This document shows, piece after piece, positions 18,934 through 23,069 of a stretch of DNA of 64,000 nucleotides. Every line of letters begins with the position of its first letter. Position 1 is the stretch's first letter. The notes beneath the pieces were generated by a model. It did not search any database. It was not told the origin of the DNA and saw nothing but the letters and a program-made list of their open reading frames with translations. A program made the position numbers and the translations under genes. The stretch covers positions 37,820,001 through 37,884,000 of the forward strand of contig OX597836.1 of NCBI GenBank assembly GCA_951406725.2, in the 5' to 3' direction. This stretch comes from Octopus vulgaris (lineage: Eukaryota).

Positions 18934-21355
18934 CACCAGATATAAATTGGAATTATTTTATTTTAATTTATATAAGATTGCAGAAACTATGCATAGTCTA
19001 GGAAAAATAGGGTAAATGTTTTTATTTTACATTCTCTTTCAGAATTGCATCTATTAGTGGCTTGGAGTTTTAACTGCTCTTTCTAGTCACTCAGATATCC
19101 TATTATTGGTTATCTCTTATGTGTTTGAATGTACACTGTATTCTTCTATATATATATGGTGTTAGGCCATGACGTAAAATATTTTAATTTATCTATATAA
19201 CAGCAGCGGTGTACGAACATATTTTGTTGGAACCAATTCAAATAATTACTTTTTTGTTTCTGTTCTTATGTTATAATACTAATGTGCATTTTTATATACC
19301 TATGTATCGATTAATTTTTCTGTAGTTTATTAACGTTATCAAAGGAATATATTATCAAACAAATGTTAATATATCTTGTGAAACATCAATAATTTCAATA
19401 TTTCTCTGACGTTTTATTGGCGTATTAATAATTCTCTTCTTTAAAAGATATTATTACTCTTTATTCAACAACGCACCGATGTACACTAACAGATTTAATT
19501 GCTTCAGTTTTCAGTAACCAAAGGTATCCATTGACAAGTGGATAGTTCTGTTGATTTGGGGAGAGGAAATATTTTTCTATAATGCCGGTTTCAAATTTTT
19601 AGCACATGGCCATCAAGTCACTACATCAACATCCTCCCCGAAGTGTTTTGTCTGGCACAGTAATGATTCCTCCCGCTCGCCGCTCCTATTATATTGATCT
19701 CAGTAGTTGATTTAGTACTTATTTTGTCAATGACGGATGAATGACAACGAAGATCTTGTTATTTGAACTCAAAATGTAAACGACCGTAAATTAAATATTG
19801 CAAGGCATTTTGCCAACACTCCACAGGTTCTGTCAATTGAACGGTTTTTCTGTTAATAAGTACAAGAATATGTAAGTACATACATTATTTTGCATGTGTA
19901 TATGCGTGCATATGAGTACCCGTGAAAGATACGTGGCCTTCAGCACACAATGTTTGACACCCTATCATAAAATTGTGAAATGCCTTGCACAGTCTTTTCA
20001 GTTGAATTGATTACCAGCCAAGCAATTACAGAACGCTCTTGGATCGTTGCATGGACACAATGGACTACTTTGTACTTAATTGTGCTTTCTTTTGTTGTAC
20101 CCTTGGTCGTACAATTTAACAAAATTGTTTATTATACGGTTCCCCGCTCCTTCAATTGATAAACATTATCTCTCTATTGCACCGAGCTGACGATACTTAG
20201 CGACAGAGCCAGGGAGTGAAATACAAATCGGTCGCATAAAAAATAAAATCTCTCTAACAAGATACTTTCGACTTATTTATTATTACGGTACTTTCTGTCA
20301 TGCATTTCGAATCTCCAGCCGAAAATTTACTGCCAAAAGGAAAGGCAAGTGGACCAAGATGACTTTGGAGGCCCCGAAGTTCCATAAGAAATGCAAGAGG
20401 ATTTGATTTGGAAAGATAGTGACGATGTTTGAATGTTTACACTACATGTTTACACTATAAACTGCGTCGATTTGTATGCTGAAAAATACGGCAGTCCGAT
20501 AATCTTTCAAACCTTCTACCCATAATGTTGGTAACTGAAAAGAAGGCAAAATTTTTATAATATCTCACATATCGAGAATAATTTTTTCGTATAGATATAA
20601 TGTATAATACTTGAAATGCTATTAAAAAATGTCACTCAGCAATCATACAAGTTCTGCTTTCCGGTTATCAAATTACTAAATCCTTTAAAAGAATATCCTG
20701 TTAAATAAACACGGAAACATAGACCTTTAATTTCTTTTAAATAAGTAATTCATAGCTTGCTTTATAAACTTCTAATTACATGAATGCCAGATTATCGAAG
20801 ACTGAGTTTTGGGGAATAATTATTGCTACGGTTATGGAGGTAACATCTATGCAATTACCTCCTAGTTTCCCTCTGTTTTGTTGGGGTTGAGGTTTGATCT
20901 CTCTACATATAAAACAAGAGAATAGTGCCGACGCTTTCTTCAAAGTTTTCTTTTCCTGTTAGAATATTAAAAGGAAAACATCTAAGGATACTTACGAAAA
21001 TCTGTCTAAAATTTCCAAAATTGTCTACTATGATTTTAGTAATTATTAAAACCATTCCTCTGTAAATGAATTTATATACGAGATAGGAATTTGTGGGAAA
21101 TGATGTAAAATAGAATACCTAACTTTACGTTTATATCACTGTTCTGGATATTCTTGTTCGTTTTTCCATAAGATCATTCATACATTCGTGAACTCAGACG
21201 ATTTGACCGGGAATTCTTGACAAGTCCAACACAAGCATGAAGCGCTCTGTTACACATTAAATAGACGTGGACGGAATTGCTAATGTGGTGGAGACTCTGA
21301 ACGTCCGAAGCTTATCCTTCTGCTTAGTTTATCTGATTTTAAATAGTTAAGATGC

Positions 21356-21408
21356 GTCCCCAAAGTCCATCCCCTCCTCACCGTGGTGGGGACGCTAGCA
21401 ACGGATAG
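21356..21408 (+). ncRNA. Candidate minimal HDV-like ribozyme
   Basis: P1 GTCCCCA/TGGGGAC (7 bp), P2 ATCC/GGAT, P3 CC/GG, L3 TCCTCACCGT, G after P1', J4/2 CAAC. G1 is the first base after the TSD. Confidence 0.65.
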
Positions 21409-21730
21409 TGTCAGAGCTATGCCGTCGGGAACTTCGGTTCCTGGTAGGGCCACCCAAGGCGGATTGGTCTGACACCGAGTGGTATTAGGGCCACAACCCG
21501 GCAGACGGGGCTCTGCTGAAAATCCTCGGAGTGTCTGTTTCGGTAACCGGCGGCTCCTCGGTCGTTCTGTCTCTGCGTCTGCGGACAATCTGCGGCAAAC
21601 AGGATGTCTCCACATGCGAGATTGATGGGGACCGCTTGTGAAATCCACATATTCCCACGAAACTTCTTCCATGAGTAGAAGAAGCCGACTCAACCCGCCC
21701 AGGGTGAATGTCGCCACAAGTACAAGTAAG
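21356..21730 (+). mobile_element. Non-autonomous bipartite RTE-clade retroposon (5' UTR joined to 3' end)
   Basis: 8-bp TSD TAAGATGC (21348-21355, 21731-21738); RTE-type 5' UTR motifs cgtggtgg..gagctatgccgt..agggccacccaag; short-repeat tail CAAGTACAAGTAAG; GC-rich against its flanks. Confidence 0.8.
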
Positions 21731-23069
21731 TAAGATGCTATGCTACCTTTCCCGTTGAGATAGATCTCTCGCCAATGAGGCTTTCCGATGACTGATTTGA
21801 TACTTCGACGTGAAAAACATCAGCTCAATGCTTAAATGTACTCAAGATGAGCAGGGGTAACAAATTCGAAATCTCAGTTAAGTATAATTAGATTTACCGT
21901 ATGCTGTGTATAAAGAAAGTTATAACACGAGGACCAATATTAATTGAATTTCATCTTTAGAAACCGCAATGACAATTGTGAATATGTTCTGGTCACATTA
22001 AAGCTTCTCAGCGAAGCGTAGGAATTACAACCGTGTTTCGTGGTCTGCTACCACAATAGCTCCTTTATAGGATCCAGTTAGCTCAAGACATCATCAGGAG
22101 GAACCACGTCTGGTTTCGGCCCCTACTCCTCTACCGTTTTGACGTGGCAGGGCCCCTACTTTCGGAGGTGTCTTTAGCTCTGGTGTTTGATGCATGTCTT
22201 CTTTCTTCTTCTGTTCCCTGGCCTCTTTGATGTATCGTCAGCGAGTGTCAGCCGGTGACTGACTGACTTGTCAAATTTTTCCCTTTAACTACCTGCTGCT
22301 AGGCTCCAGCGGGCAGCCCCAGTGATAAGATAATTACTAACTATATCGGTGAACAATAAGATACACAAGTTGGTATGGCAGCAGAGAACAACGACGGGAG
22401 AAATTATCGAGGGACGTTATACTCCCAGAAAACAAATAGTTAAATCAGAGCGAACATATGTAATGTAATATGCAAAAGCAAGTTTATTAAATGGACACCC
22501 CTGATCCATTATATTATAATGTCAGGGATTATTTTCATGGTTTTTATCTCAAACTACAAATTCTGTAGCAAAGCTAGCCCACCCAATATTTTTATGGAAT
22601 TTTTTTTAGAAAACACTTGGCGTGTTACTCTATAAAAAAATAAATTATTGCTGCAATAAATGTCAGAAGAATTTATTTTAACCTCAAATTTTCTGTATAG
22701 GACTGCAGTTCTGATAAGATAAACATTAGCGTTCTATCATTGCATGAATTTTGCGAGGGAGATTTTTAAAAAATAAAATAATAAACTTCAAAATTGTTTA
22801 ACTGATAAAGGAATATCAAATAATCTTTAGGAAAAAACAAGTTCAATAAGTATCAATTTTATTTTAAAAGGAGCAGTTATCCAACATTAGCTCAACACGT
22901 TGTAAATGACTGATAACCGAGTATGTTTTCCTTGCAAAAGGCCGAGAAATGCCTTCTTGTTTCTCTTTGCTATATATAGAAATATGATTGCACTCTTACT
23001 GCAAACGTTGTTGAGCGACTCAGTAAACACGAATCAGTATAAAACTTATACCAGTATGATTTTAAGTAA

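Follow-up and report, generated by a model that had tools for sequence, protein, structure and literature searches.

A short internally deleted RTE-type retrotransposon of Octopus vulgaris with a predicted HDV-like ribozyme at its 5' end

We identified, in a window of 64,000 nucleotides of Octopus vulgaris DNA (contig OX597836.1, positions 37,820,001 to 37,884,000), a protein-less, internally deleted copy of an RTE-type LINE in which the parent's whole 321-base leader is joined to its last 58 bases. The first 163 bases of this element are predicted to form an HDV-like ribozyme that likely cuts before G21354 and sets the 5' end of new copies. We place the probability of this reading at about 80%.

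The element, its 5' end and its parent

The element stands out in the window as a GC-rich, ORF-less insert between the two copies of an 8-bp direct repeat (21348-21355 and 21731-21738), and it consists of bases 1-321 and about the last 58 bases of an RTE-type LINE. The initial annotation had described a 375-bp, TSD-bounded RTE derivative without an ORF; the repeated insert, the RTE-type leader and the CAAGTA/TAAG tail were correctly recognized, but the true length is 377 bp (21354-21730). The features discussed below are as follows, those of the ribozyme being predicted.

21348-21355, forward strand: left TSD, 8 bp, its last two bases doubling as element bases +1 and +2 (microhomology)
21354-21730, forward strand: whole element, 377 bp, internally deleted short RTE-type retrotransposon, family A
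21354-21516, forward strand: predicted HDV-like ribozyme, 163 nt, with the predicted cut 5' of G21354
21354-21361, forward strand: 5' strand of P1, pairing with 21388-21395 over 8 bp (related families have 7 bp)
21367-21374, forward strand: P2 5' strand (21367-21369 and 21371-21374)
21375-21387, forward strand: P3 (two C-G pairs and U.U) with the L3 loop at 21378-21384
21388-21395, forward strand: P1 3' strand
21396-21397, forward strand: 3' strand of P1.1, which pairs with 21379-21380; the family has UG, and G>A at 21397 leaves this copy a single A-U pair
21398-21401, forward strand: J1.1/4 joiner GCAA, with C21399 as the counterpart of the structural C41 of genomic HDV
21402-21500, forward strand: branched P4 domain of 99 nt, in which differences between families are compensatory; G>A at 21405 is private to this copy
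21501-21506, forward strand: J4/2, G-C-A-G-A-C, with the predicted catalytic C at 21502
21507-21516, forward strand: 3' strand of P2, in two parts (21507-21510 and 21514-21516); G>C at 21516 is private to this copy
21517-21674, forward strand: rest of the parent LINE leader, ending in the ATG 21671-21673
21663-21684, forward strand: 7-bp helix, 21663-21669 with 21678-21684, enclosing the deletion junction
21675-21716, forward strand: 3' end of the parent ORF (last codons, with the stop at 21705-21707), a terminal hairpin at 21693-21705 and a short 3' UTR
21717-21730, forward strand: CAAGTA/TAAG microsatellite tail
21731-21738, forward strand: right TSD

A genome search gave 1750 candidates, of which 40 were scored, namely this copy and 39 others with 94-97% identity over about 375 bp. 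One 20-mer taken from the core occurs exactly 283 times in the genome, against 0 for a control, and the same 20-mer is present in 12 of 30 copies chosen by their 3' end; together these counts suggest several hundred copies of family A, roughly 700 by extrapolation. The family also occurs in contigs of runs under the organism codes B, C, D and E.

The base directly after the 8-bp TSD is G21356, where the ribozyme had earlier been proposed to begin. The copies do share a 5' end, and it does coincide with a predicted HDV-like cut, but it lies at 21354, and G21356 is base +3 of the element. The dinucleotide GC precedes the equivalent of G21356 in 19 of the 30 best copies. When 30 copies were picked by the core alone, the alignment ran from +1 in 17, from +2 in one, from +3 in three and from a base between +4 and +15 in nine. 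Among 30 picked by the 3' end alone, only nine start at +1, a count that speaks against a 5' end set by cleavage; nine start at +3 to +7, seven at +12 to +19 and four deeper, and one is rearranged. Conservation drops to background upstream of +1, and public contigs diverge at the same place, with loose ends at 21353 in 31 contigs of run X16 and 30 of run X17. The parent LINE copies L319 and L323 also begin at +1. Twenty of the 53 copies with an intact start have a TSD of at least 8 bp, and in these the element follows the TSD directly (nine copies), overlaps it by 2-4 bases (eight) or is separated from it by one extra base (three). The copy alignments, the contig divergence and the TSD tally together indicate that the family begins at 21354, with the G1 first proposed lying two bases downstream, and that the TSD of this copy overlaps the element by two bases. 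Variable 5' junctions primed through microhomology are known from R2 elements whose ribozyme cleaves exactly at the element's 5' end (PMC3774820). A start at C21355, with an extra G from cap copying, was ruled out, because P1.1 would then be mismatched and because the parent begins with G. The base at -1 is T in 28 of the 53 copies and C in only two, which is probably a target-site preference, since this base often lies inside the TSD.

The marks of target-primed retrotransposition are present, namely TSD, 5' truncation, inversion and tail. The 5' inversions, at L310, L299, L318, L227 and L230, are of the twin-priming type; the inverted part of L310 stops at base +1, consistent with a template RNA ending there. 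Tandem duplications of the 5' part were also seen (L032:574-1295 on the minus strand, L033:698-1274, L187:1497-2984 and L168:1328-1822), with units of 119-187 nt occurring two to three times and, in L187, a 363-bp unit occurring four times; each unit holds most of the ribozyme head.

Longer variants of the element contain a reading frame that corresponds to the C-terminus of a protein. A search with one such variant gave nine LINE 3' fragments among 30 loci, and walking upstream from 3' fragments, with 20 of 41 matches retrieved, led to three full-length parent copies (L319, L323 and L329) and to L318, whose 5' part is inverted. The three full-length copies have element bases 1-321 at their 5' end, 94-97% identical to the family majority, and bases 322-379 at their 3' end, with 3.1-3.4 kb between the two parts; in L323, base +1 immediately follows the TSD. 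The parent copies carry a reverse transcriptase (RVT_1, E 1.3e-34) and are 68-74% identical, over most of its length, to an intact 1035-aa endonuclease and reverse transcriptase protein from elsewhere in the genome. None of the four long copies (L318, L319, L323 and L329) has an intact ORF, all being broken by stops or frameshifts, and the endonuclease and C-terminal fragments had no Pfam match at 0.001. The parent has a single ORF with endonuclease and reverse transcriptase, a length of about 3.3 kb, a short 3' UTR and a microsatellite tail, and its protein scores higher with the RTE-like than with the CR1/L2-like families of the genome, labels that were given from motifs. We take it to be an RTE, a name that comes from architecture and motifs rather than from a tree of named references.

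The deletion junction lies between 21674 and 21675, where parent bases 1-321 meet the last 58 bases. On comparison with these parent copies, the element is a protein-less, internally deleted copy that joins the 5' and 3' ends of one RTE-type LINE, as the initial annotation had supposed when it inferred a non-autonomous RTE derivative made by internal deletion. Its proposal that the element is independent of Pol III also agrees with what we found, as the element contains no tRNA gene and no Pol III A/B box and thus no small-RNA head of the SINE kind.

Other queries for the parent led elsewhere. PF14529 yielded CR1/L2-like LINEs, PF20049 yielded old RTE-like fragments bearing other tails, the 66-bp 3' end of this copy retrieved short copies in 30 of 30 cases, and a reverse transcriptase query retrieved four RTE-like families without the CAAGTA/TAAG tail. 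Two young LINE families were noted along the way. L218-L222 are members of an intact RTE-type family of about 4 kb, 98-99% alike, with an open frame of 1123 codons and a C-terminal zinc-finger-like motif in the protein; the HDV-like core pattern had no match at their 5' end. L034-L063 belong to a very young CR1/L2-like family, with copies about 99% identical and, in many of them, open frames approaching 1000 codons.

The predicted fold and its covariation

The predicted fold has the nested double-pseudoknot order P1, P2, P3, L3, P3', P1', P1.1', joiner, P4, J4/2 and P2'. The L3 loop of family A is UCACCGU, with U first and C-G near the end, and J4/2 opens as in HDV-like ribozymes, with C21502 and, three bases on, A21505. 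This C is kept in 108 of 117 copies and deleted in seven. A descriptor allowing a P1 of 7-8 bp, one P3 mismatch and one extra J4/2 base, composed after the fold had been seen, found a single solution in the family majority and in this copy (start at +1, C at +149, which is 21502) and none in 1000 shuffles (on minimal forms and descriptors, see PMC10879173 and PMC4870747). Rfam returned no HDV-type match to the element at E values up to 10, or to seven loci at E values up to 1, for which the long P4 may be the reason. Pseudoknot-free folding was no better than that of shuffled sequences (z of -1.3 and -1.1).

The joiner G-C-A-A-C, facing G-G-C, aligns with G40-C41-A42-A43-C44 and G73-G74-C75 of genomic HDV, making C21399 the analogue of C41. 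In genomic HDV the A43:C41:G73:C44 quadruple is structural (PMC1874588), and C75 of HDV is the general acid (PMC6326823); the predicted catalytic base of the octopus element is C21502. In the copy in the window the base at -1 is U, which is the most favourable base there for genomic HDV (PMC1874588).

Family A is unusual in having an 8-bp P1, which it shares with its parent and which can alternatively be drawn as 7 bp plus one extra G, and a U.U in P3, besides an indel hotspot at the 3' edge of the fold and a covarying helix around the deletion junction, both considered below. J4/2 is also one base longer than canonical, and P2 is made of 4+3 bp. The R2 ribozymes have a P1 of 6-7 bp, and an R2 ribozyme with a mismatched P3 has been described as active (PMC3774820).

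Pattern searches and their follow-ups added short sister families to A, namely B with 4 copies, C with 30 aligned copies (86% identical to the majority) and D with 20 (96%). The four short families and a separate RTE-type LINE family, III (L226, L227 and L230), share the HDV-like double pseudoknot in the same order, with P1 beginning at base 1. Their five P1 sequences differ and yet each helix is complete, running from base 1 up to the edge of the P1.1 strand, with 35 of 35 pairs formed; since the families are related, such counts are not independent. This matrix used majority lines for A-D and the single copy L227 for III; the more worn L230 was left out, and its P1 pairs at 5 of 7 positions. 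Among the 120 permutations of the P1 strands only the true assignment reaches 35 of 35, the mean being 23.6. P1 is 7 bp long in B, C, D and III, and family A and its parent have gained a base pair, with a base added on both strands. The covariation in P1 and P2 that was expected of a working ribozyme family is present, and the distal P2 too changes in a compensatory way (CCA/UGG versus UCA/UGA).

The remaining parts vary in keeping with the fold. P1.1 is CA/UG in A, B and D, one A-U pair in C and CC/GG in III; P3 has two pairs and U.U in A, B, D and III, and three pairs in C. With its 3-bp P3 and a GCUAA joiner, family C has the textbook form. P4 is 98-100 nt long in A-D and 25-30 nt in III, and four of its five helices have compensatory changes. 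In 12 real copies, 93% of the cells of P2, P3 and P4 are paired, against 29-47% when the strands are slid; two-sided changes occur in seven cells (1 of 500 shuffles) but in only three pairs (120 of 500 shuffles), and counts of this kind are inflated by relatedness. Family D has A in place of the conserved L3 cytosine, and its 5' ends still lie at or near base 1; an R2 ribozyme that is inactive carries this substitution together with a second change in L3 (PMC3774820).

Several related heads were noted. Family D (L162-L185) is a young sister family with the same type of tail as A. Family B (L147, L150, L159 and L161) is about 560 bp long; it shares the head but has another 3' end and an ACAA tail, and all four copies are inserted in CAG/CAA microsatellites. 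The LINE family III has an HDV-like head of 88-92 nt with CC/GG P1.1 and a short P4. Older RTE-type remnants (L104-L106, L138, L141, L143, L149 and L153) have the L3 sequence UUGUCGU, several with a CUAA-like joiner downstream, and are probably further ribozyme heads. Eleven contigs of run X16, with a loose end before 21407, have yet another head ahead of the shared P4, which suggests a further sister family.

The copy in the window differs from the family majority at three places in 163 nt, 21397 (P1.1), 21405 (a P4 base) and 21516 (distal P2), all of them in predicted pairs. About 99% of the depth in the public contigs of runs X16 and X17 carries the family base at these sites. P1.1 has 2 bp in the family majority and 1 bp here, and the ribozyme of this particular copy is probably slower or dead.

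In the mechanism we propose, a transcript from the flanking DNA, or one starting slightly upstream, would fold into the double pseudoknot, with C21502 acting as the general acid. The endonuclease and reverse transcriptase of the parent would then bind the retained 3' end and use target-primed reverse transcription to place a copy of the RNA at a new site, a role we assign to the parent on account of the shared 3' end, the TSDs, the 5' truncations and the inversions. Second-strand synthesis would often be primed by 2-4 bases of microhomology, which could have produced the GC overlap of TSD and element seen here.

Indel hotspot, junction helix and other explanations of the fold

Indels of at least 3 nt cluster at +140 to +165, an interval chosen after the list of indels had been seen. 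Where 2.5 events would be expected there are 19, spread over 17 of 117 copies, and their breakpoints mostly differ. This is where, on the predicted fold, a reverse transcriptase would first meet the pseudoknot. The helix around the deletion junction is 7-8 bp long, and its sequence differs among families A, C and D while remaining paired. Length variants that are shared between copies change only its loop (4-58 nt; a longer variant still occurs in L309 and L314), and a strand of the helix is lost in two of 125 copies (a set including a few D copies), both singletons.

These observations could mean that an active HDV-like variant (8-bp P1, U.U in P3, branched 99-nt P4) keeps its structure while it is being reverse transcribed and so gives rise to the hotspot at its 3' edge, and that a helix between the end of the leader and the end of the ORF is required in cis and sets the limit to which an RTE can shrink; we hold this prediction to be rather doubtful. 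It is quite conceivable that both features are instead DNA-level artefacts, caused by slippage at G runs and hairpin-guided deletion, and carry no information on the RNA fold, a reading that bears on these two side observations alone. The hotspot does contain a G run and short repeats, and a 7-bp match between leader and tail is no more than shuffling gives, with 136 of 200 shuffles doing as well for the parent and 44-135 of 200 for four other RTE families. Against such artefacts, other G runs and stronger hairpins of the element have no comparable pile-up, the helix covaries in A, C and D, size variants touch only the loop, down to 4 nt, and strand loss is confined to the two singletons. If the prediction is true, genomic copies would be a read-out of RNA structure within the retrotransposition complex, and the RTE habit of spawning two-part miniatures would have a structural cause.

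The fold itself could be an inherited ribozyme, now inactive or dispensable, in which case a Pol II promoter inside the leader would define the 5' end. Such a promoter would likewise yield a sharp 5' end, every deletion spares the whole leader, and the first 77 nt of L1Tc combine promoter and ribozyme functions that share one start (PMC3185411); the non-canonical P1, P3 and J4/2 of family A and the L3 C>A of family D could be signs of decay. We nevertheless consider this explanation unlikely, given that P1 has been rewritten several times and is still paired exactly to base 1, that family A and its parent gained a P1 pair on both strands, and that the catalytic C and the A three bases on are kept in all five families, where J4/2 reads G-C-N-N-A.

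The initial annotation had modelled a compact ribozyme of about 53 nt, nearly lacking P4, that cut before G21356 with C21399 as catalytic base, and this we regard as very improbable: a 7-bp helix does begin at G21356 (21356-21362 with 21387-21393), the run of C ahead of P3 offers partners for the three G that follow CAAC, and P4-less HDV-like ribozymes exist (PMC10879173, PMC3774820), but family and parent begin at 21354, where the family P1 starts, C21399 is A in family D and absent in B and C, the third base past it is C and not A, and the descriptor returns only the 163-nt fold. The other parts of that model were misplaced as well. The L3 loop read as UCCUC is UCACCGU at 21378-21384, the CAAC taken for J4/2 is the J1.1/4 joiner, and the P4 thought almost absent is a covarying domain of 99 nt. 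The single G assigned to P1.1 (CA/UG in the family, with G>A at 21397 here) and the GGAUAG assigned to P2' resulted from a shifted register and one private change, G>A at 21405; the family sequence from +50 would give P2 only three consecutive pairs. The C21399U mutant suggested as a negative control is the wrong one, since C21399 is not conserved and matches the structural C41.

Relation to known elements

The ribozyme-headed LINE miniature is an arrangement already known, the design being that of R2 SIDEs, NARTc and bipartite RTEs. The R2 SIDEs and R2/R1 SIDEs of Drosophila (Eickbush and Eickbush 2012, PMC3414825) are likewise short, internally deleted LINEs that keep a 5' HDV-like ribozyme and the 3' end, and they are moved by the parent's protein. 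The octopus element differs from them in its RTE-type parent, its dispersed insertion, its TSDs of 8-18 bp and its hundreds of copies; it has a large P4 where the SIDEs have a large J1/2, and cleavage, demonstrated for the SIDEs, is predicted here. In trypanosomes, NARTc and RIME share the Pr77 ribozyme head of the parent L1Tc, which cuts at base +1 as predicted here and tolerates a single-pair P1.1 such as this copy has; that ribozyme is 77 nt long instead of 163 nt, and the LINE clade is a different one (Sanchez-Luque 2011, PMC3185411).

The closest in layout are the bipartite RTEs Bov-A, RTESINE1/2, MAR4_MD, WALLSI3 and RTE-N2_Lch (Kojima 2018, PMC5786205), which combine a 5' leader with the extreme 3' end, have no tRNA head and are presumed to be Pol II transcripts, as is the octopus element. 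Ribozymes at the 5' end were named there as the likely reason why such elements keep the 5' end of the LINE. Head structures are not in the text compared, whereas for the octopus element the fold, covariation, parent and junction variants have been worked out. An HDV-like fold at the RTE 5' terminus was reported by Ruminski 2011 (as cited in PMC5786205, PMC6765202 and PMC3774820), and a review counts RTEs and some SINEs among the users of HDV-like ribozymes (PMC6765202). Some of the minimal HDV-like and theta ribozymes are active with a J4/2 one base longer, as in family A; these lack P4, which here has 99 nt (PMC10879173). Our literature search, with Repbase, Dfam and supplements outside its scope, found no paper on this family, which may already have been named, and the word "ribozyme" occurs 0 times in two octopus repeat papers (PMC9115989, PMC13282606).

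The value of these elements is as a test set. One genome contains four short families, a parent LINE and a second LINE family, with ribozyme heads that differ by compensatory changes, including a gained P1 pair and a swapped P1.1. The head of LINE family III (L226, L227 and L230) would be the easiest natural positive control; a 53-nt construct would mislead, as would a C21399U control, because that change strikes a structural cytosine. The natural variants may reveal how much variation the HDV fold can bear, and whether a ribozyme or just a promoter is what RTE miniatures require.
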